From an uncultured Eubacteriales bacterium (GTDB lineage Bacteria; Bacillota; Clostridia; Oscillospirales; Oscillospiraceae): 64,000 nt of DNA. Shown here piece after piece: positions 5,421-53,349 of this stretch. The notes beneath the pieces are model-generated. The model was not told where the DNA came from and searched no databases. It worked only from the letters and a program-made list of their open reading frames with translations. Position numbers and translations under genes: made by a program. Numbering within the stretch: the stretch's first letter is position 1; each line of letters starts with the position of its first letter. The stretch is from positions 2,245,591-2,309,590 of the forward strand of contig OW818648.1 in assembly GCA_942492735.1 (NCBI GenBank), read 5' to 3'.

Positions 5421-5486
5421 GTCATTCCCGCGAAGGCGGGAATCCACGTACCTGGGAGACTGGATTCCCGCCTACGCGGGAATGAC
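5421..5486. repeat. 66-bp near-perfect palindromic intergenic element (family 1, attcccgcgaaggcgggaat-type)
   Basis: gtcattcccgcgaaggcgggaatcc…ggattcccgcctacgcgggaatgac: two stem-loops that are themselves inverted copies of each other. Its translation gives the spurious ORF 5232..5447 (MDSRLRGNDS…). Confidence 0.7.
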
Positions 5487-5727
5487 AAGTAACGCAGGAT
5501 ACAAGAAACGCAGGATATGCTGATAACTTGTTGCGTTTATGGAAGAACAGTATCACACCGACATTGAGAACGCCGCCGGTCGGTTAATACAAAAAATTGT
5601 AAATTAATGATATAACAGAATGCGGGTGAAGTAAAGCCGAAAAAAGAGCATACCGCAGTACTTGACGAATACACAGTATCGCTATAGAGTGAAGTTATAA
5701 TAATAAATCACACGGGAGGCGTAACTT

Positions 5728-6690
5728 GTGAAGCATAAATATCTGATCAACCTGCTGGACCCGGCGGATTATTTAAGTGTCAGTCAGATGTTCAACCCGG
5801 AAACAGGCGCTTTGGAGGAGGATCAGCGCATCATCAGCCTACCTGAGGGCCCGCATATGATGTTCGACATCGTGGACACCATCATGTACGGTACGGCGCG
5901 GTACCACGAGCATTCCGTCGGTTGGGAGACGTTTTTCATCACGTCGGGCTGCTGCGACCTGACAATCCGCGGCAAGACCTGCCGCCTTGTGCCGGGCGAC
6001 ATCATCCACGTCCAGCCTTGGATGGGACATCAAATGTCCTTTCCCGAGCCCACCGTCTATAGGGGGATTTTCCACGACATCAACATGTCCGGAACACTCA
6101 AAGGCTTGGCGTACATACGCGAGGTCAATCCAAAGCAGCTTGAGGGTCTTGCGGCTTTGCAGCGGTATTTGATGCGGGCTGACAATATTATCAGGGAGAC
6201 ACCGGTCAGCGTCGTCGTCCCGGCGTCAGAGGTCCCGGAAGCGCGCACGCCTGATAACCCGCTGCGTGTCTTTGCGTTCGAGGGCATCACCCTGAAGCAG
6301 TATACAGGCCGCTGGGAGAATAACGGCCTCACCGAGCTGTGGAAGGCCGAAATGGAGGATGGCTTCACGGCCCGATTCTTCGAGGATGATCCGAATACGG
6401 ATATGTTCTACATCACCGAGGGCAATGTTAAGTTCAGTGTCGCAGGTGAAGAGTTCGTCGCTACACATGACTGCCTTGTCAAGATCCCCGGTTACGCACC
6501 ACGTTCTTTCACCGCGCAGGGAAAAGCTGTCATGTATGATCTGGCAGGGATAACGCACTGGCTCGACTTCCTGGAGGATTATACTTCGATACGGATAAAT
6601 GACCCGGAGCGTCATATGAACAAAGACGCCATGGCCGCGCTGAAAGCCAAGTATAATTGCCAGGTGGAATCCGCCGGTATTTCACGGTAA
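5728..6690 (+). CDS. Bicupin (double cupin barrel) protein of unknown function
   Basis: Two cupin-like regions (GDIIHVQPWMGHQ and HDCLVKIPGYAPRSF). GTG start with a GGGAGG ribosome-binding site 8 nt upstream. Confidence 0.55.
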   Translation: MKHKYLINLLDPADYLSVSQMFNPETGALEEDQRIISLPEGPHMMFDIVDTIMYGTARYHEHSVGWETFFITSGCCDLTIRGKTCRLVPGDIIHVQPWMGHQMSFPEPTVYRGIFHDINMSGTLKGLAYIREVNPKQLEGLAALQRYLMRADNIIRETPVSVVVPASEVPEARTPDNPLRVFAFEGITLKQYTGRWENNGLTELWKAEMEDGFTARFFEDDPNTDMFYITEGNVKFSVAGEEFVATHDCLVKIPGYAPRSFTAQGKAVMYDLAGITHWLDFLEDYTSIRINDPERHMNKDAMAALKAKYNCQVESAGISR

Positions 6691-6754
6691 ATAATCGAAG
6701 AGGCCGGGTGCCATAATGCGCGCCCGGTCTCTTGCTGTATTGTTCGATATGGGT

Positions 6755-7279
6755 TCATTCAGGGATTTCAAACGATGTCGGGTCGCTGTCCTTCGGGTGC
6801 AGTGCCCATAATTCGCTGTCGTCTTCAAAACCGGCAATGTCCGCCAGCTTCATTTTCATGTATTTTGCCACAGCAGTTAAGGCGGTGCTGCCGTCCGGCA
6901 GGATAATCTTTCCCTCTCCGGTGAAAAGACGGCTTCTATTTTCGGTAATCCTCCCAGTGATCAATAGCGGCACATCGTACGGAAGGGGCTTTTTGTACCT
7001 TGTTGAGATTTCTACCGTCACACCCCATGTCTCAGGTTCGGTTATATTAATTGCTCGGCCGATTGTTTCATCGATGAGCGCCGCACCGACGCCGCCATGA
7101 ACTCTGCCCGGATAGCTTTGATGGTATTCACGCGCGATAGCCGTCGCTGTGATTGTTCCATCCTCCAGCTCGTAAAACTCGGTGTGCAGCCCTGCATTGT
7201 TGTCAATACCGCAGACAAAGCACAACCTGGAATTGTTTTGTTTTCTGATAACCTTCTTAATCATATGTTCCCCCGACAA
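6755..7279 (-). CDS. PaaI/YbgC-type hotdog-fold acyl-CoA thioesterase
   Basis: NAGLHTEFYELEDG…HGGVGAALIDETIGRA signature of PaaI-family thioesterases. Confidence 0.75.
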   Translation of the reverse strand: MSGEHMIKKVIRKQNNSRLCFVCGIDNNAGLHTEFYELEDGTITATAIAREYHQSYPGRVHGGVGAALIDETIGRAINITEPETWGVTVEISTRYKKPLPYDVPLLITGRITENRSRLFTGEGKIILPDGSTALTAVAKYMKMKLADIAGFEDDSELWALHPKDSDPTSFEIPE

Positions 7280-7402
7280 ACAGCGTTAGGACCGAGCAGC
7301 GTTAGGACCGACACGGGGGTCGGTCCCTACAATATTATGAGGCGATATGACCCATTCAGTAATATAGCACTAACGGTTCGTACTGTCCACAAATTTCCAA
7401 AG

Positions 7403-7440
7403 CAACGGGCGTCATCTTTTGACGACGCCCGTTGTTAATT
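7403..7440. terminator. GC-rich hairpin with flanking A/T tracts, immediately downstream of the 7443..8534 gene
   Basis: caacgggcgtc…gacgcccgttg forms an 11-14 bp stem, followed by ttaattgttta. Confidence 0.45.
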
Positions 7441-7442
7441 GT

Positions 7443-8534: not shown

Positions 8535-8658
8535 ATGCTTGACTGCTATTATAACAGACTGTTCTCATCGAAATATCACGAATTATGCAGACGGTGCGGG
8601 ACGGTAAGCGCTCATCCGGTATTTATGGCGCAGCTGTCTGCACGTTTACAGTTGTGCT

Positions 8659-9740: not shown

Positions 9741-11768
9741 TCAGCGTATCGGCATATACGGCTTGTAAGGCTGTACTTTATATATCGCATCAGCAATAAT
9801 CTTCGCCAGGATGGGAGAACCGGTGCTGTTCGGATGAAAACCGTCTTTCCAAAAGTAATCGCTTCTGTCAAGACTGACATCATACCAGTTGGCGACTGTT
9901 GTATTGTCGTATTCGGCGGCAATTTTCGTCAGCGTACTGTTGACCGCATCACACCAGGATCTCGGCACCTGTGTGTTGACAAAGACGATCTTTCTGTCAC
10001 TGCCGATCAGTTCAATCAGCGCGCGCATATGCGCTTCGGATACCGTTCCGTTGGATCCGAGCTCAATAACAACGGTTGACCACAGTTTGTTTTGCGCTAT
10101 CAATTCACTGATAATATTTTTCGCTTGATAGAACTGTCTGCCAACTTTAGCGTACATGTACATATTGGGATAATACTCCTGCAAGCTCGGGGCGATGTCG
10201 ATCGCTATCGAGTCGCCGATGACTGTGATGCAGAGGTCGCTCGGCGTTATGACTGCTGGTGCGCTATCAGGTGAAGCATCGGAGGCCTCTGGCGATGGGC
10301 TTGCTGTGGGCGGCTCCGGACTATCTGTTGGGTTCGCCGGACTGCTCGATGGAGAAGCCGAGGATAACGATGTATCCGTCGACGGACTCGTTGTCGGCGA
10401 TGGGCTTATTGACGGCGGCGGACTTGTTGTCGGCGCCATGCTTATTAACGGCGGCGCTGAAGAGGCTTCCGCATTATTTTGAGGCGTAATAATCATCTGC
10501 GAGGGTAAAGCGCTAAGTTCGTCCAAGCCTGAATTCGGCACAGCCTGTGCATTGAGAAAACCGGCGCCTGATACCAGTACCAGCGTGATTACCAGCAGAG
10601 CGGCCGTTTTTTCCCACCAACGCGTATGCAGGCAGCTCGAACAAAAATCACGGAAAGAGCTCTTTTTGAAGGATTTGATGATCTGACTCTTGCGAATCGG
10701 CATTTCTATAAGGTAATAAGAGACCGTTGCCAGCAGAATAGTCGCGGCAACCTGACAGATGCTCAGTATCACATTCAGTTTATTTGATGGCATCATTGTA
10801 TTCGAAATGATAATCACGGGAAACTGCCATAAATAAACGCCGTAGGATATTTTGCCGATAAATCGCAGCGGCCTTAAGCCAAAGAATTTTCCGATGACCG
10901 TGGTGGGACTTACAACTGCTGCGATGAGCACGCAAGAAGCGATGGAGAAAACGAACATGCCGCCGCGGTAAAGAAAATCGTCATACTGCGTCATATAGTA
11001 ACACATAAATATGATGCCGAAAAGCGCAATGAAACCAGCGATACTCGATATGAGTCGCGTATTCCTTTTTTGCATCGCTTCCGTAATCTTTTTGCTCGGA
11101 AAGGCGAACGCCAGACATGCGCCGAGCAGCAGGGAGAAAACACGGGTATCCGTGCCATAATAGATGCGGCTTGGGTCGAATCCCGGCTGATAGAGCACCG
11201 CCATGAGTGCACCCGATATAACAGCGGCGACGGCAATAACCGTGATCTTAATCCAGTTCTTTTTTATGAACCGCTGTAACAAGAGCATCAAAAAAGGCCA
11301 AACGAGATAAAACTGCACCTCAACGGCAAGCGACCAGAAGTGATTTAGAAGAGAAGGTGTCGCAAAAGAGGTGAAGTACGGAATGTCGTTGAATATGTAC
11401 CACCAATTACTGGCGAAAAACATAGCCGGCAGAAACTCGGATTTCAAGTTCGCAAAGAGGTCGGGGCGAAAAACCGTGACATAAGCAACAAGGCATATCA
11501 GCAGAAAAAACACACTTGGCAGGAGTCTTTTCCCACGCCGGATAAAGAAACTTTTCAGATTGATTTTGTTGTCTTTTGCCCACTCAGTCTGCAGTATATC
11601 GGTGATCAGATATCCTGAAAGCACAAAAAACAGCGTCACGCCTAGAAAACCGCCGGGGACAAACGGCAAGCCCAAATGATACGCAATAACCGCAAATACA
11701 GCTAAAGCCCGGAGGCCGTCAAGCCCGGGCATGTAAGAATTTTTTTGAATCGTTATATCTGTCATCAA
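9741..11768 (-). CDS. oatA: OatA-like O-acetyltransferase: acyltransferase-3 membrane domain, Pro/Ser/Thr-rich linker, C-terminal SGNH domain
   Basis: About 10 transmembrane helices with an acyltransferase-3 pattern, a low-complexity PSPTTSPS linker, and a C-terminal SGNH domain (VIGDSIAID…KDGFHPN). This matches the peptidoglycan O-acetyltransferase OatA architecture. Confidence 0.75.
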   Translation of the reverse strand: MMTDITIQKNSYMPGLDGLRALAVFAVIAYHLGLPFVPGGFLGVTLFFVLSGYLITDILQTEWAKDNKINLKSFFIRRGKRLLPSVFFLLICLVAYVTVFRPDLFANLKSEFLPAMFFASNWWYIFNDIPYFTSFATPSLLNHFWSLAVEVQFYLVWPFLMLLLQRFIKKNWIKITVIAVAAVISGALMAVLYQPGFDPSRIYYGTDTRVFSLLLGACLAFAFPSKKITEAMQKRNTRLISSIAGFIALFGIIFMCYYMTQYDDFLYRGGMFVFSIASCVLIAAVVSPTTVIGKFFGLRPLRFIGKISYGVYLWQFPVIIISNTMMPSNKLNVILSICQVAATILLATVSYYLIEMPIRKSQIIKSFKKSSFRDFCSSCLHTRWWEKTAALLVITLVLVSGAGFLNAQAVPNSGLDELSALPSQMIITPQNNAEASSAPPLISMAPTTSPPPSISPSPTTSPSTDTSLSSASPSSSPANPTDSPEPPTASPSPEASDASPDSAPAVITPSDLCITVIGDSIAIDIAPSLQEYYPNMYMYAKVGRQFYQAKNIISELIAQNKLWSTVVIELGSNGTVSEAHMRALIELIGSDRKIVFVNTQVPRSWCDAVNSTLTKIAAEYDNTTVANWYDVSLDRSDYFWKDGFHPNSTGSPILAKIIADAIYKVQPYKPYMPIR

Positions 11769-15524: not shown

Positions 15525-15560
15525 ACGCGCCGTTATTCCCGCCTGCGCGGGAATACCTAA
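15525..15560. repeat. Short palindromic element related to family 1 (ttattcccgcctgcgcgggaata)
   Basis: A 9-bp perfect stem around a tgc loop, sharing the attcccgc/gcgggaat arms of the element at 5421..5486. Confidence 0.55.
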
Positions 15561-15745
15561 GCGTTTGCACACCATGGTAAACGATCTTCAGGTAATCTCT
15601 GATTGTTGCGCCGATAATAGATTACCTTGAGATTTTTCGCAGGCTCAGAATGACAAACGCTAGTACTTAATTGCAACGACAGACGCCGGAATTTCAGAGC
15701 AATGACAAGGCAAGCCGGCCTTGCCGGTGCTTGTCGTCCGTAATT

Positions 15746-18700
15746 CTAAATCAGTCCTGATTTTTGCAGTAGATGCTGAACCATCACAGCGACCTCGGCG
15801 CGCGTCACATAGTCCTTCGGGGATAGCGTCGTTGCGCTTGTTCCGGTTGTGATACCCGCCTCGAGGCAGGCTGCAGCGCTTTGTCTCGCGTAGCTCGAAA
15901 CGTCCGCCCCATCGGTGTACTTTAAAAGAAGCGCGCTTACTTCGCTGTCTGTCAGGCTTATGCGAAGCCCGGCTAGCTTCATCGCATTGGCGATAATCGT
16001 CATCGCCTGTTCACGGGTAATCAGGTCATTCGGGCCGTAGCTTGTGCTGTCATAGCCGGATATGAGCGCATAGGCTGCCGCGGTGTCGACATCGCCGTTA
16101 AACCAGTCGGTCAGCGTTACATCGTCGAAGCTGCTTTCCGCTGTGCCCTTGGCAAGACCCAATGCTCTGACGATAATTGCCGCGAACTCTGCTCTCGTAA
16201 TGCTTCTGTCTGGCTCGAAGATGCCGTCACCGATTCCCGCGACGACCATTCTCGAGCCCATGTCGTTGATTGCCGTCTTTGCCCAGTTGTCTGTCACATC
16301 CGTAAACGTCACAGGGTTCCAGATGACGGAGTAGGTGCTGTTTGTCAGGCTGTTTATCTTTGCGTAATACTTGCCGTCGATCACAACGATCTGCGTCGGC
16401 ACATGGCGGAAGGTTCCGTCTGCGTTGAGTACGATGCCGGTTGTGATCTTGGAGGGGTCTACGCCGTCGGGTATGGCGATCGTGCGCTCCACATAACCGT
16501 TAAATTTGGATATTGAAATCGTCTTGTCACCGCTTGTGCAGGTGATTTCAAACTCAACGGGCTTTACAACAATTTGATAGCCGCCCTGGTTCGCCGTATC
16601 CTCTATAATCTTAACCGTATCCGCCGGCGGCTCGGCTATCTTGACGCTCACGTTGATGTCCTTGAGCTCGACCTGAGAGCCAAGCAGCGCCGAAACAGCG
16701 TCGATGTTGATCTGTGATGCCGGAAGTGTGTAGGTAACGGTTTCGGTTTTGATTTCGAGGGTTGCCTCTTTAGTTTCCATATTCTTGATTGTCTGCCCGT
16801 TCAGCTCGCCGACAACAACATCGGAACCCATGATGCCAGGGAGGGTGACCGTCGGCTTCTCGCCGCTGCTCTCAAGTAACTTATCCAGCTTCGTATCGTC
16901 AACGGTTATGGTCGTCGTTGTCTGTCCGCCGCTCGTCGTGGTGCTGGCTGTTCCCGCGTCCTGCCGCACGCCGTTGACTTCAACGACCGCGCTGCCAGAA
17001 GGCGTGCTGTCGTAGACGACCTGCGGCGTTACTGTAACCGTAACCGTCTTTGCCGCCGTCATAGTGCCGTCGTATGCCGTTATCTCCAATACATAGCTGT
17101 TATTCGTGTTGGTGTCGGTCGGGGTTCCGTATGATGGCGCTGTTCCAAAGGTTACGACGCCGGCAACGATGCTGAACTTTGCCGCGTCATCGCCGCCCGA
17201 AATGCTCCATGTAATCGCGCTTCCTTCCGGGTCCGAAGCCGCCGGGGTGAAGGCTGCCGTGCTGCCCTCAATAACGCTTATTGCGACACTTGTGGAAATC
17301 GCGGGTGCTTCGTTGACATTTGTGACGGTGATAGCCAAATCTTTTGAAGCAGTAAGATTTCCTCCGTCTTTTGCCACAACCAGAATGTTGTATACATTGT
17401 CTGCCCCGATGTCCTTTTTGTCCTCATAATTCGGAACGGCGTTGAAGGTTACTTTTCCGTCGCTGTCGATACTAAAGAGCGTTTTGTCCGCTCCGTCAAG
17501 GCTCCACGTAACCGTATCGCCCGCGTCAGGGTCTGTCCGTGTCGCGGTGTAGACCGTCCCTGTACCGTTCTCAGCAAAGCTAGCCGGATCTCCCGATGTG
17601 ATGCTCGGCGCTTCGTTGACCGCAGTGATTGTTATTGTTGCGGTTATGGCTGCGGAATTGACTGTTCCATCATAGGCCTTCCATGTGAAGCCGTCATTTC
17701 CGCTGTAATCGGCGGTGGCTATATAGGTAAATGTTCCGTTGGCATTAAATGAAAGTGATCCGTGGCTCGGACCAGTCCACAAGACATAGCTGAGCGTATT
17801 CCCCTCAGCGTCAGACGCATATGACGTCAGACTGTCGTTCAGCACGGTGTCCTCATTCGTTGTAAAGGTATGAGCCGTCACCGTGGGCGTGTCGTTGACG
17901 CCATTGATGGTGATGGTCAGGGTATTCCCCGTCGTGCCGGCGGAATCGGTCGCCTCAATCGTGAAGATATCGGGTACGGCTGCCGTCTGTTCATTCAGTA
18001 TCGCATTGCTGGTGGGAACATAGACGTAGGAACCGTTGCTTTTCACATACAGCGTACCGTAAATGCTGGCCTTGGAGACATTATAGGTAACACTGTCAAT
18101 GACAGTATCGCCCAATGTTCCGCCGTTGATTCCGTATCCTGTAATAGAGCCGGAATTCGCCGTTGCATCTATAGTTCCCATTACGCTGGGGAAAGTATCG
18201 TTAGCTGCCGTATCATTATAACTATGGCTGGCCGGATTAACCGTTGGGCCGCTGACTACTTTAACCGTAATCAGCAGCGCGTTACTGTTTCCGGCTGTAT
18301 CATCTACGTATACAAGCACAGCATAGCTGCCTGCGCTCAGCCCACCGGCGTTATTAATCAGCAAATTGGCTCCGGAAATTGTGAACTTGCTCATGTCGGC
18401 GCCGCCGATTAGTTGCCATCTGAGCGAATCGGTAAAGCCGGAGATTGTCGTTGCATCTGTTGCCGTCAGCGCACCCACAGTTGCACCATTTGTCGCCGCC
18501 GTCGTGCTTATGGTCAGAGTTGAGGGTGTTGTAACAGAAGGCGCTGTCGTATCGATAACAACAAGCTTAGTGCCTGCTGCCGACACATTTACAGCCGTAT
18601 CAGTCAAAGTGGCTGAAATTGTATAGCGGCCTGCCGCGTATGTATGGGCCGGAGCTGTGAAGGTGCCGGCTGCAATGGTGCCGGTAGCGTGAGCGGTGCC

Positions 18701-21694
18701 ATCACCGAAGTCCAGATCGACGCTTGCGCCCGTTTCGCCGCTGACGGTGATTGTTTGAGAGGGCGTCTTTGTAACGCCGTCATTATTGAGGTTTCCAATA
18801 TCCGAACTCATAGTAAGCGTCGGCGCAATGGGGTCGGTACTGTCCTGAGTAATTGTAACGCTTGCAGGTGCGCTATCATTGCCAACAGCATCCGATGCTA
18901 TAACAACAAGCGTATTTAAAGCATTCTGATTCAGATTCACACTTATGGAATAGCTGCCCCCGGTAGCAGTTCCGGTTGCTGTTACATTGCCGCCGGTAAT
19001 AGTAATCGTCGCTCCAACGTCTGCCGTGCCGTTGATTATAATATTGTCTGCGTTGATAGTTTGATTTCCTGTTGTAATAATCGTTAGCGTCGGATTTATG
19101 TTGTCCACCGTCGCGTTGGTCGTATCTGCTGCTGTTCTTGTATTACCCGCATTGTCCCTTGCTGTCACAGCAACATTTATGTTCGTAGCGTCAACGGTTC
19201 CAGCTGTTATCGTATAGGTCGCGGTCCATGTTCCGCCAGAATTTGTCGCAGCAACGGCGGCTCCTCCGCCGAATGCGCTGAAATCGACGTTTACACCCGA
19301 TATCGTGTCAGCGTTGTTGTCGCCGCCTGCGGTGTTGTTCCACGTTGCCGTCACGGTGTCGCCTATTTTATACGCACCGCCCGTTCCGCTTGCTCCGCTG
19401 ATAGAAATGCGCGCGTCTGTCACCGTGGGTGCAACGTTGTCCACTGTCGCATTCGTCGTATCGGCTCTTGTTGTGCTGTTGTCCGCATTGTCTTTGGCAG
19501 TTGCCGATACATTTTTATTCGTGCCGTCGATAGCTCCCGCGACTATTGTATATGTAGCAGTCCATGTCCCAGCTGAATTTGTCGCAGCAACGGCGGCTCC
19601 TCCGCCGAATGCGCTAAAGTCAACGGTTACCACCGAAATCGTATCACTGTTATTATCGCCGCCCGCGGTATTGTTCCACGTTGCCGTAACGGTGTCGCCG
19701 ATTTTATACGCTCCGCCCGTTCCGCTTGCTCCGCTGATTGAAATGTTACCGTCCGTCACCGTGGGCGCTACGCTGTCCACTGCCGCGTTCGTCGTATCGG
19801 CTGTTGTTGTGCTGTTGCCCGCATTGTCAGTTGCGGTTACCGAGACATTTCTATTCGTGGTGTCGAGGGCTCCCGCGACTATCGTATATGTAGCAGTCCA
19901 TGTCCCGGCTGAATTTGTCGCAACTACTGTGGCTCCTCCGCCGAACTGACTGAAATCAACGGTTACGCCTGATATCGTATCGCTGTTATTATCGCCGCCT
20001 GCGGTATTGTTCCACGTCGCCGTAACGGTGTCGCCGATTTTATGCGCTCCGCCCGTTCCGGTTCCGCCGCTGATGGAAATGCGCGCGGCTGTCACCGTCG
20101 GAGCGACGTTGTCCAACGTCGCATTCGTTGTATCGGCTGTTGTGGCAGCATTGCCCGCGTTGTCAGTTGCGGTTACCGAGACATTTCTATTCGTGGTGTC
20201 GAGGACTCCCGCGACTATCGTATATGTAGCGGTCCATGTCCCTGCTGAATTTGACGCAGCTACGGCGGCTCCTCCGCCGAACTGACTGAAGTTAACGGTT
20301 ACGCCGGAAATCGTATCGCTATTATTATCGCCGCCTGCGGTGTTGTTCCACGTTGCCGTCACCGTATCGCCGATTTTATACGCTCCGCCAGTGCCGCTTG
20401 CTCCGCTGATAGAAATGCGCGCGTCTGTCACCGTCGGCGCAACGTTGTCCACTGTCGCATTCGTCGTGTCGGCTTTTGTAGTGCTGGTCCCCGCATTGTC
20501 CGTGGCAGTTACCGATACATTTTTATTCGTGCCGTCGATATCCCCCGCAACTATCGGATATGTAGCAGTCCATGTCTCGGAATTATTTGTTGCAACTACA
20601 GAAGCACCGCCCCCGAATTGACTGAAATCTACAGTCACGCCTGTAATTGTAGCGCTATTATTGTCTCCAGCTGCGGTGTTGTTCCACGTTGCCGTCACCG
20701 TGTCGCCTATTTTAAACGCTCCGCCAGTGCCGCTTGCTCCGGCGATGGAAATACGCGCGTCTGTGACCGTCGGCGCGGCATTGCTGACTGTAATTCCGTT
20801 GCCGGTCAAGTCGGCAATAATGAGCGAGGCAGTGGTATTCGTATCCCAATCTTCCGCCGCGGCGAGATTATATGTAGTTCCGCCCGTTGAGCTTGTGCCG
20901 TTTTTATTCATTATCTGATTGACGGCGGCCTTGTCGAACGCGTTGAGCGTCACCGAAAAGTTGGTTGCACTGGTGGCAAACACATTACCAGAGGTAAGCG
21001 TGCACGTACTTCCACCCTCTCCGGTCAGCGTCAGTTTGTTGACAGCAATAGTGTCGCCAGTTGTCATGCCGCTGCCTGTTACTGCTAAAACGCCAGTGTT
21101 TGCATCATATGTTGCGCTCGTGATAAAGGGGGCGGCTTTTACGTCATCGATCTCAAGATCTTGAAAAACGACATACGAATCAGAAGTAAAGGTGACACTG
21201 GTAACATCGTTAAACGACGTCAGACCGGACTTCGTGATTAAGGTTTCATTCGCCGCGGTATATGGGATGCTGGTAACCATTCCGTTATAGTATACGGATA
21301 TCGTATAGCTGGGTTCTGCTGCATAATGATTTCCAGCAAACTTAAATCCGGTCAGATCAAAGGTATGCCCCGCTGCAACAGACACGGTAAAATCGACCCC
21401 GTTGTTTGCGTTGCGTGTTGAGCTAGCGTATATACCGGTTAAGGTAGTATTCGCATCGATGCTAAACCAGTTAGGAGTATATGCTGTTGAACCGTTAGCA
21501 AATGTAAATGTCTTGCCTTCGATGGGTCGTACAAAGCTGCCGCTTGCGGCATTAATGTCTTCGGGCGAATCATCTATAAATGTCACTGTCGTGACAATCG
21601 CCCTTGCCGGCAGCGTCAGCGCGGGCAAAAGGCAAATCACCAGCGCCAGAGCCATAAAAGTCGAGATTAGCTTTCGTGCAATTTTGGTTTTCAT
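15746..21694 (-). CDS. Giant S-layer-homology-anchored surface protein or adhesin (1983 aa): signal peptide, six tandem Ig-like repeats, cadherin-like and Ig-like domains, three C-terminal SLH domains
   Basis: The in-frame ATG at 21694 has a perfect AAGGAG ribosome-binding site and gives MKTKIARKL… plus a hydrophobic signal. There are six ~111-aa repeats (VAPTVTDARISISGASGTGGAYKIGDTVTATWNN…) and VNDTPTV/VNEAP cadherin-like linkers. Three SLH motifs follow (FTDV…NWA…, FDDV…, YTDG…). The longer track ORF that extends to 21916 overlaps the PadR gene. Confidence 0.85.
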   Translation of the reverse strand: MKTKIARKLISTFMALALVICLLPALTLPARAIVTTVTFIDDSPEDINAASGSFVRPIEGKTFTFANGSTAYTPNWFSIDANTTLTGIYASSTRNANNGVDFTVSVAAGHTFDLTGFKFAGNHYAAEPSYTISVYYNGMVTSIPYTAANETLITKSGLTSFNDVTSVTFTSDSYVVFQDLEIDDVKAAPFITSATYDANTGVLAVTGSGMTTGDTIAVNKLTLTGEGGSTCTLTSGNVFATSATNFSVTLNAFDKAAVNQIMNKNGTSSTGGTTYNLAAAEDWDTNTTASLIIADLTGNGITVSNAAPTVTDARISIAGASGTGGAFKIGDTVTATWNNTAAGDNNSATITGVTVDFSQFGGGASVVATNNSETWTATYPIVAGDIDGTNKNVSVTATDNAGTSTTKADTTNATVDNVAPTVTDARISISGASGTGGAYKIGDTVTATWNNTAGGDNNSDTISGVTVNFSQFGGGAAVAASNSAGTWTATYTIVAGVLDTTNRNVSVTATDNAGNAATTADTTNATLDNVAPTVTAARISISGGTGTGGAHKIGDTVTATWNNTAGGDNNSDTISGVTVDFSQFGGGATVVATNSAGTWTATYTIVAGALDTTNRNVSVTATDNAGNSTTTADTTNAAVDSVAPTVTDGNISISGASGTGGAYKIGDTVTATWNNTAGGDNNSDTISVVTVDFSAFGGGAAVAATNSAGTWTATYTIVAGAIDGTNKNVSATAKDNADNSTTRADTTNATVDNVAPTVTDARISISGASGTGGAYKIGDTVTATWNNTAGGDNNADTISGVNVDFSAFGGGAAVAATNSGGTWTATYTITAGTVDATNINVAVTARDNAGNTRTAADTTNATVDNINPTLTIITTGNQTINADNIIINGTADVGATITITGGNVTATGTATGGSYSISVNLNQNALNTLVVIASDAVGNDSAPASVTITQDSTDPIAPTLTMSSDIGNLNNDGVTKTPSQTITVSGETGASVDLDFGDGTAHATGTIAAGTFTAPAHTYAAGRYTISATLTDTAVNVSAAGTKLVVIDTTAPSVTTPSTLTISTTAATNGATVGALTATDATTISGFTDSLRWQLIGGADMSKFTISGANLLINNAGGLSAGSYAVLVYVDDTAGNSNALLITVKVVSGPTVNPASHSYNDTAANDTFPSVMGTIDATANSGSITGYGINGGTLGDTVIDSVTYNVSKASIYGTLYVKSNGSYVYVPTSNAILNEQTAAVPDIFTIEATDSAGTTGNTLTITINGVNDTPTVTAHTFTTNEDTVLNDSLTSYASDAEGNTLSYVLWTGPSHGSLSFNANGTFTYIATADYSGNDGFTWKAYDGTVNSAAITATITITAVNEAPSITSGDPASFAENGTGTVYTATRTDPDAGDTVTWSLDGADKTLFSIDSDGKVTFNAVPNYEDKKDIGADNVYNILVVAKDGGNLTASKDLAITVTNVNEAPAISTSVAISVIEGSTAAFTPAASDPEGSAITWSISGGDDAAKFSIVAGVVTFGTAPSYGTPTDTNTNNSYVLEITAYDGTMTAAKTVTVTVTPQVVYDSTPSGSAVVEVNGVRQDAGTASTTTSGGQTTTTITVDDTKLDKLLESSGEKPTVTLPGIMGSDVVVGELNGQTIKNMETKEATLEIKTETVTYTLPASQINIDAVSALLGSQVELKDINVSVKIAEPPADTVKIIEDTANQGGYQIVVKPVEFEITCTSGDKTISISKFNGYVERTIAIPDGVDPSKITTGIVLNADGTFRHVPTQIVVIDGKYYAKINSLTNSTYSVIWNPVTFTDVTDNWAKTAINDMGSRMVVAGIGDGIFEPDRSITRAEFAAIIVRALGLAKGTAESSFDDVTLTDWFNGDVDTAAAYALISGYDSTSYGPNDLITREQAMTIIANAMKLAGLRISLTDSEVSALLLKYTDGADVSSYARQSAAACLEAGITTGTSATTLSPKDYVTRAEVAVMVQHLLQKSGLI
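19100..20790. repeat. Five to six tandem copies of a ~333-bp coding repeat inside the adhesin gene (near-identical at the DNA level)
   Basis: Near-identical strings recur at a 333-bp period (for example ccgcccgttccgcttgctccgctgat, gtccactgtcgcattcgtcgta). The antisense ORFs 19305..19949, 20007..20285 and 20340..20621 are artefacts of this periodicity. Confidence 0.8.
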
Positions 21695-21734
21695 TTTTTT
21701 GCTCCTTATTCTTGTTTTCGGGGCTGCTGTCATC

Positions 21735-22292
21735 TTATTTTGCGGTAATTTCCGCCTTGATTTCTTCCATAAGCATTGCGTACTCGCGGCATTTGACGAG
21801 TCCCCAGCGGTGGGCAAAAACGGCTGATTGTAGCCGTCTGTCGTCCCCGGACAAGCCAGTCTTTCCAGTGAAATTATCGTAGTTTTCGCTGTAGTTGCCA
21901 ATAAGGCGATTTTCAAACGCCTTTATGTTGCGAAGCTGCGTGTCAATCAGACGCAGCTGCTCTTTCTTGGGCAGCGCGCCCGAGAAAAACAGCTGCATCA
22001 GAAACATGTCCCGTGAAATAAAGTCGTTCACGGAGTTTTTCGCGCCTGCAGTCAAGTAGGCCTCCCGCCCCTTGTCTGTGATAGCGTAAACCTTCCGGTC
22101 GACCGTTTCGCCTTTTTTAAGCTCCTTGAGCTCAACAAGCTCTTCCTTAACGAGTTTTTTCAGCGTTCTGTAAATCTGCGTCTGGTCCGCGGGCCAGAAG
22201 TATGAGGCCGACATGTCAAACAGCTTTTTGATATCGTAACCGGACAGAGGCTTCATGGACAAAAAGCCCATAATTCCATGCTCAAGCGACAA
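21735..22292 (-). CDS. PadR-family transcriptional regulator
   Basis: N-terminal winged-helix signature (HGYDIKKL…QIYRTLKKLVKEELV). It lies 40 nt upstream of the adhesin gene on the same strand. Confidence 0.8.
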   Translation of the reverse strand: MSLEHGIMGFLSMKPLSGYDIKKLFDMSASYFWPADQTQIYRTLKKLVKEELVELKELKKGETVDRKVYAITDKGREAYLTAGAKNSVNDFISRDMFLMQLFFSGALPKKEQLRLIDTQLRNIKAFENRLIGNYSENYDNFTGKTGLSGDDRRLQSAVFAHRWGLVKCREYAMLMEEIKAEITAK

Positions 22293-23735: not shown

Positions 23736-23742
23736 ATAAATT

Positions 23743-23784
23743 AAAAGAGGCTCAACGCTTTTGTATCGCGTTGAGCCTCTTTTA
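23743..23784. terminator. Bidirectional intrinsic terminator
   Basis: aaaagaggctcaacgc…gcgttgagcctctttt: a perfect 13-bp stem flanked by an A-run and a T-run. It sits between the convergent YczE-like and rpsI genes. Confidence 0.7.
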
Positions 23785-23810
23785 ATATTGTTGCAATAAT
23801 AGCTTGCAGA

Positions 23811-24662: not shown

Positions 24663-24895
24663 AATATATCCCCCATATGAAATTATTGATACAAATAAGT
24701 TTTGACAAAGATATTGCAAACACGTAAAATACGTGCAAACAGTGCCTTATTTTTATAACATAACGAATTATCAAAGTCAATAGCAGTTTATGTTTATTTT
24801 AATTTATCATTTGATGATCTTCTGATATCTCTATTTTACGCCGATTATCTCGAATTTGCTCAAAACCTATTTTACTTTTTATTATGACCTGAAAG

Positions 24896-25072
24896 ACAGA
24901 AAAGTACTGCAATGAGGAGTATAGCGTGACAAATGCTTTTCACGCGCGGGAGAAATCAATTTGCCCGCCAAAAAAGCGGCGGCTATTTTCGAAGCGGATT
25001 GTATCCACTTGAAAACGCATCGGTTTTTACTATTTATTTGTGCTGCCGCTTTGCGGCGGAATGGAGATTTAT
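24896..25072 (+). promoter_or_regulatory. Conserved ~175-nt leader element, copy A. It contains three GC hairpins, a TTGAAA-N16-TATTTA promoter-like pair, and the ribosome-binding site and start of the downstream gene.
   Basis: It is clearly similar (identity estimated by eye at about 80%, not computed) to 28965..29137: shared blocks include atagcgtga.aaatgcttttc.cgc.cgg.agaaa, ccgccaaaaa.cgg.ggcgg, aagcggattgtatcc.cttgaaaac and ttatttgtgc.gccgctt.gcggcggaatgg.g. Confidence 0.6.
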
Positions 25073-25834: not shown

Positions 25835-25936
25835 TGTCATTCTGAGGAGCAAAGCGACGAAGAATCTCCAGGTGATCGTATATCGGCGAAACGGCCGAGG
25901 ATCACCTGGAGATTCTTCACTTCGTTCAGAATGACA
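25835..25936. repeat. ~100-bp palindromic intergenic element (family 2, tgtcattctgagg…cagaatgaca)
   Basis: The arms tgtcattctgaggagcaaagcgacgaagaatctccaggtgatc and gatcacctggagattcttcacttcgttcagaatgaca are inverted copies. It lies between the convergent ttcA-like and rsgI genes. Confidence 0.7.
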
Positions 25937-35975: not shown

Positions 35976-36001
35976 TCAAAAATAAAAGTCTTTTATAAGT
36001 T

Positions 36002-36036
36002 TGGCGGGCGTAAATTCGCCCGCTAACTTTTTGTAA
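36002..36036 (+). terminator. Intrinsic terminator of dfx
   Basis: ggcgggcg-taaatt-cgcccgc hairpin followed by taactttttg. Confidence 0.65.
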
Positions 36037-36065
36037 TTCATGGTTAGCTTCGTTTACGGTAACGA

Positions 36066-36131
36066 CGGTGCGATGTGGGCATCGCCCCCTACGGGCACCA
36101 CCTTGTAGGGTGCGATGCCCACATCGCACCG
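36066..36131. repeat. Palindromic intergenic element (family 3, cggtgcgatgtgggcatcgc…gcgatgcccacatcgcaccg)
   Basis: A 21-bp near-perfect inverted repeat whose central part is also self-complementary (ctacgggcacc…cttgtaggg). Confidence 0.7.
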
Positions 36132-36581
36132 TTTGCCTTGCGGTGAGTGAACGCGCCAAGACGAAAGAACAGGGATTCAATAGAGAATCCCTGTCTTTCC
36201 AAGCCTGTGTTTAGTTTATGCGGAAATAATGTTTGTCTTTAAACTTCTTGCCTACAATTCGAGAATTACTGCCCGAATAAAGTTAGGCCATTTGACGCTA
36301 TCCAACTTAATCATCTCCCAGTTTTTAACGACTAAAACCTGCTTGACGATATTCTATTATGACACCGACTCATTAAGTTTCCTTAAGGAATACTGACGTG
36401 TCCAAGTATAGTATGAGATAAAAACTCGAAATTATTCTGTGGAATAATATTCCAAAATATATATAATTAGTTTGAAAACCTCGGTATATTATGCTAAAGT
36501 AATGAGGAACAAATTACCGGAATAGATAGAGCATATGCTTAATATAAGTTATTGATTACATAACGAAAGGATAGATGAAGT

Positions 36582-43008: not shown

Positions 43009-43011
43009 AGT

Positions 43012-45835: not shown

Positions 45836-46336
45836 ATGGATTTACCAAAACGTAAACATCCCAGGCTGAAAGAATATGATTACGGCCAGAAAGGGATTTA
45901 TTTCATAACAATCTGCACCAACGTAAAGCAGTGCACACTATCCAAAATCGTAGGGCGCGGCTTCCTAGACGCGCCGCAGACCAGGCTTTCAGATTACGGA
46001 TTATGTGTTGATGGTGCTATAGAATATTTAGACGAGCATTCCGAATTACTTGAAGTAGATAAATATGTGATTATGCCAAATCATGTTCATCTATTGATCA
46101 CGATAATAAGCGATCAGAACGGCGGCGCGTCTGGGAAGCCGCGCCCTACGGATGCCGTGTTGCCGAAGTATGTATCGTCATTGAAAAGATATACAAATAG
46201 GGTCTGTGGAACCGATCTATGGCAGACTGGATATTATGACCACATTATTAGAGATGATAACGACTATATGATGAAGTGGCAATACATAGATAGTAATCCT
46301 GCCAAATGGATTGAGGATGAATATTACTCTGAATAG
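45836..46336 (+). CDS. tnpA: IS200/IS605-type HuH Y1 transposase (possibly REP-associated), solitary and with no recognisable element ends
   Basis: YFITICTN…MPNHVHLLI (HuH) and …YYDHII (catalytic Tyr region). A GGAG ribosome-binding site overlaps the stop codon of the preceding gene. Confidence 0.7.
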   Translation: MDLPKRKHPRLKEYDYGQKGIYFITICTNVKQCTLSKIVGRGFLDAPQTRLSDYGLCVDGAIEYLDEHSELLEVDKYVIMPNHVHLLITIISDQNGGASGKPRPTDAVLPKYVSSLKRYTNRVCGTDLWQTGYYDHIIRDDNDYMMKWQYIDSNPAKWIEDEYYSE

Positions 46337-47458: not shown

Positions 47459-48160
47459 GTGAATTTCTTGACGAACGACCAATACCGGGTAATTGAAGAT
47501 TATATGCTCGCCTGTATGAAGGACAGCGCGCATGATAAGGAGCATATTTACAGAGTGCTTTACGTCGCGCTGGACATTGCGCAATATGAGGGATACATCG
47601 ATGAGGACGTGCTTATTGCAGCCTGCCTTCTGCACGATATCGGAAGGGAAGAGCAGAACGAGAACCCGGCCGTTTGCCACGCATTAGCCGGCGGCGAAAA
47701 AGCGTATACGTTTTTGACCTCCAACGGATGGAAAGAGGATCGGGCACAGCACGTGAAGGCCTGCATCGCATCGCACCGGTACAGAACAGACCTGCAGCCT
47801 CAGAGTATTGAAGCAAAAATCGTGTTCGACGCCGACAAGATCGACGCCACGGGCACCCTCGGCATCGCCAGAACAATCCTTTTTCGCGGCGACGGTGTGG
47901 AACCGCTGTATTCTTTTTTACCGGATGGTTCTGTTTCCGACGGCAGCCATACGCTGGAACCCTCTTTTTTTCAGGAGTATAAATTCAAGCTTGAGAAGCT
48001 CTACGATAAGTTCTATACAAAACGCGGTGTTGAAATAGCTAAAGAACGGCAGCATTCAGCCATCGCTTTCTATGACAGCATGCTGGAGGAAGTCCAATCA
48101 TCATATCAGCCGGGGAATGGTTTACTTATCAACATTTTGGCAAAAGGGGATAATTATTAA
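47459..48160 (+). CDS. HD-domain metal-dependent phosphohydrolase
   Basis: H…HD motif (HIYRVLYVALDIA…ACLLHDIGR) and a downstream D.DK.D region. Confidence 0.7.
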   Translation: MNFLTNDQYRVIEDYMLACMKDSAHDKEHIYRVLYVALDIAQYEGYIDEDVLIAACLLHDIGREEQNENPAVCHALAGGEKAYTFLTSNGWKEDRAQHVKACIASHRYRTDLQPQSIEAKIVFDADKIDATGTLGIARTILFRGDGVEPLYSFLPDGSVSDGSHTLEPSFFQEYKFKLEKLYDKFYTKRGVEIAKERQHSAIAFYDSMLEEVQSSYQPGNGLLINILAKGDNY

Positions 48161-48184
48161 TTTTCCTGCGTAAACCACAAAAAC

Positions 48185-48218
48185 GCCTCAACGGAATAAA
48201 CCGTTGAGGCATTTTTTT
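48185..48218 (+). terminator. Intrinsic terminator
   Basis: gcctcaacgg-aataaa-ccgttgaggc: a perfect 10-bp stem followed by attttttt. Confidence 0.8.
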
Positions 48219-48277
48219 ATCGTAAGGATTTATGTGATTGGGAATCTCAAGGATTTTCAGTCACATGATGTAAGTAA

Positions 48278-49456
48278 TTAACCTAATGCTGCGATGATTT
48301 CCGGTATGACCTTATAGAGGTCGCCAACGATGCCGTAATCAGCGACTTCAAAGATGGGGGCATTTTCATTCTTGTTGATGGCAACGATATAGCCGGACTT
48401 CTGCATACCGGCAAGGTGCTGAATAGCGCCGGAGATACCGCAGGCGATATACAGGTCGGGCTTAACAGTTGTACCGGTCTGTCCGACCTGATGGGCGTGG
48501 TCAATCCAGCCAGCGTCAACAGCGGCACGTGAAGAGCCGACAACGCCGCCAAGGCGGTCAGCCAGCTGCTTGATGAGCTTGAAGCCTTCGGGATTGCCGA
48601 GGCCGGCACCGCCGGATACAATGATCTTAGCGTCGACAAGGGAGACCTTCTCGGTGAGACCCTTGACAAGCTCCAGAACCTGCATGCGGATATCGTTTTC
48701 TTTGAAAGCGACGGTCAGGTTGATGAGTTCGCCCTTCTGACCTTTAACTTTCTTCGGCTTCTCCATGACGCCGGGACGAACAGTCGACATCTGCGGACGG
48801 TGATTCGGGCAGAGAATCGTGGCCATGAGGTTGCCGCCGAAGGCCGGACGTGTCTGCATGAGCTTTTTATCAGTCGGGTCGATGTCGAGTTTTGTGCAGT
48901 CGGCGGTGAGGCCTGTACCGCACTGAACGGCGAGGCAGGGACCAAGGTCGCGGCCGATATGCGTCGCGCCGAGGATGACGATTTCGGGTTTATACTTCAG
49001 AATCGCCTGATATATGACCTTTGTATAGGCGTCCGTGTTGTAGGTTACGAGCTCAGGCGCGCTGGCATAGTAGACCTTATCGGCGCCGTTTTCAAACAGT
49101 TCTTCAACAAGTCCGTCAACCTTATCGCCCAGGAGAATCGCGCAAAGCTTACAACCAATTTCGCCCGCCAGCTTTTTGCCTTCGCCGAGGAGCTCAATGG
49201 AAACACCCATGAGCTTGCCTTCACGCTGCTCAGCAAAGACCCAAACGTCGTGATAAAGTGTGATGTCAACACCTTTTTTTGCTTCATCGAGCTTTTCGAT
49301 GGCGGCAAACGGGCAGACCTCGATGCAAGCGCCGCAGCTTGTGCAAGCCGCACCGATGACAGCCAGTCGTTCGTTCATTGTGATCGCGTCAAAGGGGCAA
49401 GCCTTGATGCATTTTTGGCAGCCCTTACATTTGTCATCTATTATTCTAACAGCCAT
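48278..49456 (-). CDS. etfA: Electron-transfer flavoprotein alpha subunit with an N-terminal 2x[4Fe-4S] ferredoxin domain
   Basis: [12 protein letters not shown] and [12 protein letters not shown] clusters, then an ETF-alpha FAD-binding domain. Confidence 0.85.
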
Positions 49457-50266: not shown

Positions 50267-50283
50267 ATACGAACTCCTTTACT

Positions 50284-51426: not shown

Positions 51427-51588
51427 TATTCTTCCTCCTATGCTCATACTAAAATTGTTATTTATATCCCAACTATAACTCGGAAAATAAAGCTAAAATA
51501 TACAACTGTCATATGCATTTATCGCCATTATGACTGCTATTATAAATGTTAGATAAAAATATTGTATTATTTTGTTTAATACTTTTTC

Positions 51589-52455
51589 TTGAATATATTC
51601 ATGTTTCATGCTAAATTAATGCCATTGGGATACATAATTATAGGTATAATGTACTCTTGCGGTGAAAGGATGGTTGCGTTGAGTTCCACACTGTTTGACT
51701 ATGAATGGCAATTTCTCCTGCAGATGGTCTCGCGAATCAATTATTGTGAGACATATATCGAGACATGTGACACAATTCTTCAGCAGATGAGGACGCTTAT
51801 TCCGTTTCAGACAGGCATCATCTTCCAGGCTGGAAGGGAAAACGGCCGCGTCATCCTCGATAATCCGGTATCGACCGAGACACTTGATGACAGTTCCGAC
51901 CACACCTTTTTTACGGAAGGCAACTATCCGCATTGGAACGAATTTATCATGGCCCCGTACAGCATCGTTTTCAGGCAGTCAGATATTATAGCGCCGTCTA
52001 AAATGGAGAAGACAAGGGTTTACCGTGAGATATGGCAGCAAAGGAACATCTACTGGGGTCTTTTTGTTTCGCTTGTTTACAAGGACTGTCCTCTCGCTGT
52101 CGTGGGCTTGATGCGCGAAAAGAGCGATGAAGATTTTTCGGCCAGGGATATCTACATCATGAATACACTCAAGGATCCGCTGGAGCGCAAGTTTTATAGT
52201 TTGCTCGAGGGAAAGATGCGTCGGAGCGGCAATTTCTCACATCCGGAACGAATCGCAAAAACAGCATCACGATACGGACTGACGAAACGCGAGACGGAGA
52301 TTGTCGCGCTTGTCTGCAGCAGCAAGAGCAGCGAAGATATGTGCCAGCAGCTCTATATCACCCATGCGACATTATCAAAACACCTGTCGAACATCTACTC
52401 AAAAACGAAGGTACGCAACAGAACGCAGCTTTTCGGGCTTTTCAACGATGCCTGA
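51589..52455 (+). CDS. LuxR-family transcriptional regulator (N-terminal sensor-like domain, C-terminal LuxR HTH)
   Basis: C-terminal LTKRETEIVALVCSSKSSEDMCQQLYITHATLSKHLSNIYSKTKVRNRTQL. It is divergent from the bcd operon. Confidence 0.65.
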   Translation: MNIFMFHAKLMPLGYIIIGIMYSCGERMVALSSTLFDYEWQFLLQMVSRINYCETYIETCDTILQQMRTLIPFQTGIIFQAGRENGRVILDNPVSTETLDDSSDHTFFTEGNYPHWNEFIMAPYSIVFRQSDIIAPSKMEKTRVYREIWQQRNIYWGLFVSLVYKDCPLAVVGLMREKSDEDFSARDIYIMNTLKDPLERKFYSLLEGKMRRSGNFSHPERIAKTASRYGLTKRETEIVALVCSSKSSEDMCQQLYITHATLSKHLSNIYSKTKVRNRTQLFGLFNDA

Positions 52456-52652
52456 TGCTTGACCTGCGTGACTTGTAAATACAAGTCAACGTTTATCCCA
52501 CTGAGCAATTATTTTATATGCTGACGACTCTTTTTGCAATGTGTAATATTAGAAAATTCAACTATCTTTTTATACTTTGATTTGATTTATCGGACAAAGG
52601 AAACATTTACATAAGTAAAATACGCGATTATGCAAAATACAAACAGTTTTAA

Positions 52653-52670
52653 AATTCATTATAATGAATT
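52653..52670. promoter_or_regulatory. Perfect 18-bp palindrome AATTCATTATAATGAATT, a candidate Fur-family (PerR-like) operator upstream of rubrerythrin
   Basis: It has an ATTATAAT core and sits 30 nt upstream of the rbr start, overlapping a likely -10 element. Confidence 0.35.
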
Positions 52671-52701
52671 GCTACTATTTGAAGAGGAGCGAAAATTAAG
52701 T

Positions 52702-53244
52702 ATGAAAGAACTAAAGGGCAGTAAAACGGCCGAAAACCTTATGACGGCGTTTTCAGGCGAATCACAGGCGAGAAACAAGTATTCCTATTATGCGTCCAAG
52801 GCGAAAAAAGACGGGTACGAGCAGATCGCCGCCATTTTTGAAGAAACAGCAGCCAACGAAAAAGAGCATGCAAAGTTGTGGTTCAAACTTCTGCATAACG
52901 GCGATGTGCCGGACACCCTGACAAACCTGAATGATGCGGCAGCCGGTGAAAATTACGAATGGACCGACATGTATGCCTCATTTGCCAAGGTCGCGCATGA
53001 AGAAGGGTTTGACGACATCGCCAAGCAGTTTGAAGGCGTTGCTAACGTCGAAAAGGTCCATGAAGAGCGATATAGAAAGCTGATCGCCAATGTCACAGGC
53101 GGACTTGTATTCTCGAAGGATCATGACGTCATCTGGCAGTGCGCGAACTGCGGCCACATTGAGATCGGGAAAAAAGCACCTGCCGAATGCCCCGTATGTG
53201 CGCACCCGCAGGCCTATTTCCAGCTTCGCGCGGAAAACTATTAA
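52702..53244 (+). CDS. rbr: Rubrerythrin
   Basis: [27 protein letters not shown]… diiron four-helix domain plus a C-terminal rubredoxin-like CANCG…CPVC. Confidence 0.8.
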
Positions 53245-53265
53245 GTATTAAATAATACCTTTCCA

Positions 53266-53349
53266 GAACGGCCAATGGCCGCTCCCTACGATATGTTGTG
53301 GTCCGTACAGAAACGCACAATATATGTAGGGGCGGCCATTGGCCGTCCG
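53266..53349. repeat. Palindromic intergenic element (family 4, ggccaatggccgctccctacg…cgtaggggcggccattggcc)
   Basis: A 22-bp near-perfect inverted repeat between the convergent rbr and fdhD genes. Confidence 0.7.

Follow-up and report, generated by a model that had tools for sequence, protein, structure and literature searches.

The palindromic elements in a 64,000-nucleotide stretch of DNA from an uncultured Eubacteriales bacterium (contig OW818648.1; the whole stretch is referred to here as the window) form two superfamilies that are defined by their tags, GTAG(GG) and GTCAT. The window probably holds two independent dispersed hairpin-repeat systems, of which one comprises repetitive extragenic palindromic (REP) sequences with a REP-associated tyrosine transposase (RAYT) and the other comprises Ssn-related motifs (SRMs). 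A preliminary description of the window listed four mutually unrelated families, a division that is not retained here: the heads GTAGGG/CCCTAC are common to family 3 (36065-36132) and family 4 (53266-53349), and the GTCATTC head and GAATC tail are common to family 1 (5420-5487) and family 2 (25836-25935). Both kinds are bacterial hairpin repeats that have already been described, as REP/RAYT and SRM/Ssn, and the window is a new instance in the Oscillospiraceae. The ribosomal protein S9, at 93-95% identity, places the host in this family close to Sporobacter, and the GC content of the window is 47%.

An inverted-repeat search returns 5420-5487 (arms of 27-28 nt, 96% complementary), 36065-36132 (arms of 28 nt, 96% complementary), 53268-53346 (18-nt arms), 25859-25918, which is a 19-nt perfect core inside the longer imperfect palindrome 25836-25935, and a short palindrome or half-copy at 15525-15564. 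Folding as single-stranded DNA (ssDNA) gives energies of -33 to -36 kcal/mol for each of the four main elements, whereas dinucleotide shuffles yield -10 to -12 kcal/mol (z-scores of -10.9, -8.6, -9.9 and -9.1; 0 of 200 shuffles fold equally well). The palindromes that the preliminary description listed are thus real at the positions it gave, and the spurious open reading frame (ORF) MDSRLRGNDS... that it derived from family 1 is found at 5232-5447 on the minus strand. Its view of the elements as richer in GC than their flanks holds for 5420 (0.60 versus 0.42), 36065 (0.66 versus 0.43) and 53266 (0.57 versus 0.50) but not for 25835 (0.49 versus 0.51). Similarly, a location between divergent or convergent genes applies to 5420 (divergent) and to 25835 and 53266 (both convergent) but not to 36065 and 15525, where the neighboring genes are co-directional. 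Overlooked at that stage were a singlet at 7301-7330, two hairpins in the Y1 transposase gene at 45836-46336 and a decayed family-2 element at 15583-15654. An Rfam scan of the whole window yields no family above the gathering threshold. CRISPR arrays are ruled out, as the units are inverted rather than direct and regular spacers are absent, and integron attC sites are ruled out by the lack of an R''/R' core.

The GTAG-tagged elements of families 3 and 4 are inverted doublets of REP units that resemble REP doublets forming hairpins (REPINs). The first doublet consists of a left half at 36065-36092 (GTAGGGGGCGATGCCCACATCGCACCGT on the minus strand) and a right half at 36105-36132 (GTAGGGTGCGATGCCCACATCGCACCGT on the plus strand), with the heads pointing inward across a 12-nt spacer, and the second consists of units at 53266-53289 (GTAGGGAGCGGCCATTGGCCGTTC on the minus strand) and 53326-53348 (GTAGGGGCGGCCATTGGCCGTCC on the plus strand, followed by a T-rich tail). 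The unit sequences of the two families read GTAGGGTGCGATG... and GTAGGGGCGGCC..., respectively. In both doublets the order is hairpin-CCCTAC, spacer, GTAGGG-hairpin, and the 36-nt spacer of the second doublet is itself palindromic. Long hairpins of the REPIN type are accordingly formed by 36065-36132 (-35.7 kcal/mol) and by 53266-53349 (-34.2 kcal/mol). Additionally, a solitary unit is present at 7301-7330 on the minus strand (GTAGGGACCGACCCCCGTGTCGGTCC; fold z-score -3.1). Beside this singlet, at 7280-7312, the outer stem arm is partially duplicated in direct orientation, as AGCGTTAGGACCGAGC and then AGCGTTAGGACCGAC.

With a descriptor composed of GTAGGG and a following stem, seven units are detected across the window, of which four belong to the doublets, one is the singlet at 7301-7330 and two lie in the ORF at 45836-46336. 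Five units are therefore extragenic within the 64 kb. In all seven, GTAGGG is followed by a stem of 6-9 pairs with a loop of 3-10 nt, and each has at its foot the GT[AG]G that characterizes REPs. The hexamer GTAGGG itself is not over-represented in the window, and a hairpin follows 7 of its 10 occurrences. These features agree with the literature on GTAG REPs, REPINs and RAYTs (Nunvar 2010; Bertels & Rainey 2011; Di Nocera 2013, PMC3733652; Quentin et al. 2018, PMC6006769), in which an imperfect palindrome of 20-30 nt likewise has GTAG at its foot, and the units are intergenic and occur as inverted pairs, singlets and mixed clusters. The window differs from the published systems in its longer tag, GTAGGG, and in its Clostridia host, whereas most published examples are from Proteobacteria, Cyanobacteria and Bacteroidetes.

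The distribution of the elements was followed by scanning three collections (Clostridia genomes, viral contigs and metagenome contigs); for the three scans with many matches, the counts are lower bounds. Exact 25-31-mer cores are present in at least 118 Clostridia stretches, at least 120 viral contigs and at least 120 metagenome contigs. The Clostridia stretches carry the family-3 core GTAGGGNGCGATGCCCACATCGCAC, for which the query was a 25-mer with N at position 7. Several copies are found per genome, with up to 11 contigs of a single metagenome-assembled genome among the matches listed, and the hosts include Ruminococcus, Oscillospiraceae, Eubacterium, Peptococcaceae and other Clostridia. 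The sharing of an exact core by several genera is unlike classical REPs, which are species- or genus-specific. The exact family-3 core also occurs in a Bacteroides faecis bin (L123, L135, L160, L186 and L197), a Bifidobacteriaceae bin (L121, L168 and L182) and a Bacteroidaceae bin (L127, L137, L146 and L171). These occurrences in Bacteroidota and Actinomycetota bins reflect either mis-binned Clostridia contigs or spread across phyla.

The family-3 core is often paired, heads inward, with a partner in which the stem is altered in a compensated manner, e.g., GTCGATG...CATCGAC. In the listed family-3 loci (0.8 Mb), a hairpin follows 302 of 462 GTAGGG hexamers, which amounts to 95 distinct variants; these include family-4-type units (GTAGGGGCGNNCATTGNNCGYCC) and units of the type found inside the RAYT gene, mixed in clusters that resemble bacterial interspersed mosaic elements (BIMEs). 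Family 4 itself is represented in other Clostridia loci by one exact copy in addition to the compensated-stem variants. Among 43 distinct family-3-type variants, 95.6% of the stem cells are paired, and at three of the stem positions every one of the four Watson-Crick pairs is found. Changes on both sides affect 51 cells, compared with 14.8 in shuffles (0 of 500 shuffles are as high). The stem sequence can change freely provided that its bases still pair, and for this reason units that share a head appear to be unrelated.

The gene at 45836-46336 (plus strand, 166 aa) encodes a Y1 HUH transposase with the motifs PNHVH, LWQ and YIDSNP. It was previously taken for a solitary IS200-type transposase apart from the repeats, and it proves instead to be a RAYT (TnpA-REP) that contains two GTAGGG REPs in frame. 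The RAYT model NF047646 (NCBIfam) matches the protein with an E value of 1e-15 versus 0.3 for the IS200 model NF033573. An IS200 transposase was rejected on the basis of this poor match, the single copy in the window and the syntenic position of the locus in a relative (L365). The protein shares with IS200/IS605 enzymes the HUH/Y1 core and probably the recognition of a short tag plus hairpin on ssDNA; unlike in those elements, the window contains one copy at a syntenic locus, tnpB is absent, and the hairpins lie inside the gene rather than at the ends of an element. The sole related solved structure is that of E. coli TnpAREP (PDB 4er8, E value 9e-5), and RayT appears among the source names of the 1165 homologs. 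The subclass 2.4 motifs NH[IFV]H, WQ and YIxNNP are present, an N of the last one being replaced by S, and the assignment to this class is based on motifs. For subclass 2.4, which corresponds to Group 4 of Bertels 2017, RAYT genes that carry REPs without loss of the reading frame have been reported (Quentin et al. 2018, PMC6006769). A single RAYT at a conserved chromosomal site with in-frame REPs, as seen in the window, is in keeping with the published systems.

The first embedded REP (45950-45977, plus strand, GTAGGGCGCGGCTTCCTAGACGCGCCGC) lies upstream of the HUH motif and encodes VGRGFLDAP, and the second (46121-46149, minus strand) lies downstream of it, is inverted and encodes GGASGKPRPT. 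The two are inverted copies with 28 of 30 bases identical. In the alignment with E. coli TnpA-REP, the second falls within an 11-residue insertion, and in 34 aligned homologs of approximately 50% identity, both peptides are nearly invariant and sometimes multiplied. Among 122 retrieved sequences, VGxG pairs with PxPT as DNA complements in 73 of 89 homologs, including the combinations T-V, D-S and S-L, and DxP pairs with GxS in 73 of 86 (G/P 3/3, V/T 3/3). In contrast to the published REP/REPIN systems, nearly all homologs contain a covarying pair of REPs that flank the HUH motif at constant positions. It is conceivable, though rather doubtful, that the embedded REPs are a functional part of the system, such as a master copy or a self-regulating site, rather than tolerated insertions. 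In the RAYT homolog of locus L206, the same two positions are occupied by a family-3 REP (VGCDAHIAP) and a GTCGATG variant (GSMWASTPT), so that the embedded and the extragenic REPs of that genome are linked.

Synteny at the RAYT locus extends to L365, the closest relative found (70% protein identity), in which the gene order is RAYT, DUF3795, ETF, acyl-CoA dehydrogenase and GerE and the embedded REPs are nearly base-for-base equal to those of the window. Judging from this synteny and the matching REPs, the pattern fits a single gene that is inherited vertically. L365 also contains a truncated second RAYT at 1760-1900 (...IIMPNHVHMLVMIYEEESGGASGKPRPT...), and the syntenic part of the window (48160-48278) has a terminator only; a sequence of this relative that seemed to be a third copy of the RAYT-internal REP, outside the gene, was rejected, as it is this truncated gene. 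In L366, two RAYT paralogs (10001-10528 and 19015-19509) lie 9 kb apart in one genome with different embedded GTAGGG REP pairs, each with an extra REP just upstream.

The RAYT is not connected with families 1 and 2. Family 1 consists of a unit at 5420-5447 (TGTCATTCCCGCGAAGGCGGGAATCCAC on the plus strand) and an inverted partner at 5460-5487 (TGTCATTCCCGCGTAGGCGGGAATCCAG on the minus strand), with the heads pointing outward and a 12-nt spacer. Chenal et al. 2025 (PMC11893778) described a Neisseria motif named NTS (CGTCATTCCCGCGMAVGCGGGAATCYRG), within which lies the dRS3 repeat, as well as a degenerate SRM. Ssn proteins are small GIY-YIG proteins that cut ssDNA beside such hairpins; this was shown for Neisseria and Wolbachia enzymes, strand-specific cleavage was shown for four Ssn proteins, and the ssn genes (single-domain GIY-YIG, cd10448) are typically flanked by the motifs (PMC11893778). 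The unit at 5420-5447 differs from the NTS consensus at two end positions only, and both arms of 5420-5487 fit the published SRM search pattern, HGTCWYN(0-2)YYVSBRHN(0-5)WNVSBRGN(0-2)RNCYNB. This pattern has 4 matches in the window, compared with 0.14 expected from 100 simulated sequences. As in the SRM/Ssn system, the GTCAT head orients the unit, and the inverted pair mirrors a motif-ssn-motif cassette. A degenerate NTS-like single unit is located at 15532-15557 (plus strand, GTTATTCCCGCCTGCGCGGGAATACC); its core ATTCCCGCCTGCGCGGGAAT fits the dRS3 pattern ATTCCC-N8-GGGAAT, and its head has mutated from GTCAT to GTTAT.

The exact family-1 25-mer is present in at least 120 viral contigs from very different samples, in which it occurs singly, in tandem and in inverted pairs; among the inverted NTS pairs, the heads point outward in 47 and inward in 10. 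A small GIY-YIG gene (PF01541), detected with a hidden Markov model built from real ORFs, is present in 7 of 120 listed family-1 loci, in most cases with a motif directly upstream. In viral loci retrieved with an Ssn protein alignment, a GTCAT-tagged hairpin upstream of the gene and a hairpin followed by ATGAC downstream of it are found in 18 of 20 cases, with many different stems. Short tandem runs of half-units, each consisting of the head and left stem arm (GTCATTCCCGC or GTCATTCTGAGGAGC) plus approximately 9 unrelated bases, precede many GTCAT hairpins (L003, L038, L114 and L120 for the family-1 type and L353, 5800-5950, for the family-2 type). They look like scars of repeated partial copying or of cleavage and rejoining.

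Family 2 pairs a long hairpin unit at 25836-25877 (GTCATTCTGAGGAGCAAAGCGACGAAGAATC on the plus strand), which has an 11-nt arm extension, with an inverted short unit at 25900-25935 (GTCATTCTGAACGAAGTGAAGAATC on the minus strand), which also has an arm extension. The GTCAT head and ATC tail are as in NTS, and the stem is longer and contains tandem G-A mismatches. A decayed element of this type at 15583-15654 has a right end (GATTACCTTGAGATTTTTCGCAGGCTCAGAATGAC) that resembles the right end of 25836-25935 and a left arm that is partly kept (z-score -2.1; no strand is assigned), so that the region 15532-15654 combines the NTS-like unit with the mutated head and a decayed family-2 element. The family-2 31-mer is found in 6 viral contigs and at least 120 metagenome contigs, in unrelated gene contexts. 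In one metagenome contig (L353), the long unit precedes an ssn gene by 24 nt, and the stop codon of this gene is closely followed by an inverted short unit, GTCATCCTGAGCGAAGCGAAGGATC. The element at 25836-25935 and the ends of this cassette have in common the asymmetry of a long left and a short right unit. Based on the architecture and this one adjacent ssn locus, family 2 most likely belongs to the Ssn type.

Two of the elements are absent at the orthologous sites of related Oscillospiraceae genomes. The family-3 doublet 36065-36132, together with approximately 100 nt of flanking sequence, is missing from the spacer between the Dfx and Zn-ribbon genes in L390/L391, where the neighboring terminator and the promoter region further downstream remain alignable and where a family-3-type REP is carried at a different locus. 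Likewise, 25836-25935 is missing from the PP-loop/RsgI spacer of a syntenic relative (L392/L393). These two elements, both of them intergenic, were gained or lost since the split from the related genomes. The near-perfect arms (96%) of 36065-36132 point to recent formation. Together with the recurrence of the cores in many contigs, the empty sites show that the suggestion of REP/BIME-type elements or miniature inverted-repeat transposable elements (MITEs) in the preliminary description was right in kind.

These data also bear on two simpler explanations. The elements might be gene-specific intrinsic terminators or mRNA-stabilizing hairpins that arose in place, as three of them follow one or more genes, a loose terminator pattern with T-rich tails is weakly matched by the right-hand units at 36109-36130 and, downstream of the rubrerythrin gene, at 53330-53348, and that gene has no other terminator-like site. 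This explanation is very unlikely. Single-copy, gene-specific terminators are not supported, given the recurrence of the 23-31-nt cores in hundreds of contigs, in other organisms and in unrelated gene contexts, and the two empty orthologous sites. Moreover, 5420-5487 sits between divergent gene starts, and no terminator-like site is found there or at 25836-25935. A canonical terminator at 36001-36026 already serves the Dfx gene, which lies upstream of 36065, relatives that do not have the element retain the conserved terminator at 36168-36195, and the ordinary terminators of this genome look different (e.g., 23740-23786).

Classical MITEs, that is, deletion derivatives of insertion sequences of the DDE type with terminal inverted repeats and target-site duplications, would account for elements of 68-102 nt that are palindromic overall, intergenic and in two cases present or absent between relatives. 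However, the unit that is repeated is a 23-31-nt tag plus hairpin. Single units are found at 7301-7330 and 15532-15557 and make up most copies elsewhere, and the spacers between units can be of any length. The partners of a doublet can be of different unit types, the elements are not flanked by direct target duplications, and the window contains no DDE transposase with matching ends. An origin as classical MITEs is therefore highly improbable.

Several observations weigh against the assignment to two enzyme-linked systems. The 64 kb contain no more than one or two copies of each core, and sequence divergence blurs the insertion boundaries at both empty sites. For the RAYT, the match to NF047646 (57.9 bits) and that to PF01797 (18.7 bits) are below the curated cutoffs of 80 and 23 bits, respectively; both models are built mainly on RAYT subclasses other than 2.4. 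Additionally, the REP type embedded in the gene (GTAGGGCGCGGCTTCC...) has a stem and loop unlike those of the extragenic REPs, and no copy of it lies outside the gene within the window; the RAYT may consequently not be the enzyme that serves families 3 and 4. The GTAG REPs could instead be inactive relics or be served by another RAYT, with the enzyme at 45836 acting on its own embedded type only or having another role. The genomes of L206 and L209, in which the abundant extragenic type equals the embedded type, and the two paralogs with different REPs in L366 are in line with this possibility, which is not negligible but is less probable than a direct connection. The GTAGGG foot is common to all units, and the GTAG foot is the main specificity determinant in E. 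coli TnpA-REP; the 96% arms of 36065-36132 argue against relics, and stem identity varies freely within one genome. The two GTAGGG REPs in its reading frame tie the RAYT gene directly to families 3 and 4.

For the GTCAT units, no ssn (GIY-YIG) gene is found in the 64-kb window or in 836 kb of Clostridia loci, and the published ssn genes are mostly from Gram-negative bacteria (PMC11893778), which suggests that the cognate nuclease may be absent and that these units may be relics. In addition to the missing gene and the Gram-positive host, the gene-less inverted doublets are unlike the published SRM/Ssn loci. Family 2, with its longer and mismatched stem, lies outside the published search pattern, and among the 120 listed family-2 metagenome loci an ssn gene is present in 2 and adjacent in just one. 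A de novo search of these 120 loci for protein families enriched beside the units yields only unrelated housekeeping genes and spurious repeat-derived ORFs. Family 2 could accordingly be a separate hairpin-repeat system that merely has the GTCAT head in common with SRMs, a view to which the requirement for tandem G-A mismatches in the stem also lends weight. This is nevertheless quite unlikely. Family 2 and NTS have the same head (GTCAT) and the same tail (ATC), and the family-2 units of L353 occupy the positions of SRMs, as around 18 of 20 ssn genes. The stems that flank ssn genes are diverse and include long ones (L370), and for a repeat with hundreds of copies per single gene, adjacency to that gene is expected to be rare.

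In the mechanism that is proposed for both systems, each unit consists of a short tag and a stem-loop that forms in ssDNA, and it would be recognized by a small site-specific ssDNA enzyme. For the GTAG REPs, i.e., the REPIN-like inverted doublets 36065-36132 and 53266-53349, the singlet 7301-7330 and the two units in the RAYT gene, this enzyme would be the RAYT, a domesticated HUH/Y1 transposase. The model follows E. coli TnpA-REP: the RAYT would bind the hairpin together with its GTAG foot on ssDNA, cleave and rejoin, and such activity would seed, maintain and homogenize the REPs, including the two in its own gene. The GTCAT units (5420-5487, 25836-25935 and the relic 15532-15654) would be cut beside the hairpin by an Ssn protein, as described in the literature. 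Effects on transcript ends or mRNA stability would be side effects of the hairpins.

The heads-outward inverted doublets look like motif-ssn-inverted motif cassettes that have no gene. The spread of recognition sites by Ssn itself is a hypothesis that was raised, but not tested, in the paper describing these proteins (PMC11893778), and gene-less doublets with cassette-type ends are compatible with it. It may tentatively be proposed that 5420-5487 and 25836-25935 are non-autonomous mobile elements that derive from motif-ssn-motif cassettes and are copied in trans by Ssn, although we consider this rather doubtful. If true, it would constitute a second ssDNA-hairpin transposition system, which would be based on another nuclease fold, would resemble REPIN/RAYT and would share a genome with it.

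Two other features of the window are repetitive. A module of approximately 160 nt occurs at 24915-25075 and 28979-29140 (82-87% identical) and ends at a ribosome-binding site and ATG; the copies precede the unrelated PP-loop ATPase and Ku genes, which bracket the sigma/RsgI operon. The module, which looks like a shared promoter or leader, has no Rfam match, and a permissive scan of 24700-25150 gave a chance snoRNA match only. On the minus strand, 15746-21916 encodes a 2056-aa SLH/cadherin-like surface protein, in which five tandem repeats of 336 nt (112 aa) with 71-78% identity are located at 19083-20726.

The GTAG(GG) and GTCAT tags sort palindromes that seem unrelated into two enzyme-linked systems, which occur together in one Gram-positive anaerobe. 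For annotation, the short repeats yield spurious ORFs (MDSRLRGNDS, SFPRRRES, VGRGILDAP and GASGKPRPT), and embedded repeats can make a RAYT pass for an IS200 transposase. Identical REP and SRM cores are common to different genera and possibly to different phyla. The fixed, covarying REP pair in the RAYT and the cassette-like, gene-less SRM doublets merit the attention of specialists, and the gene-less doublet of the window and the ssn cassette of L353, which have the same asymmetric ends, form a pair that may be used to address the question of whether Ssn spreads its own motifs.

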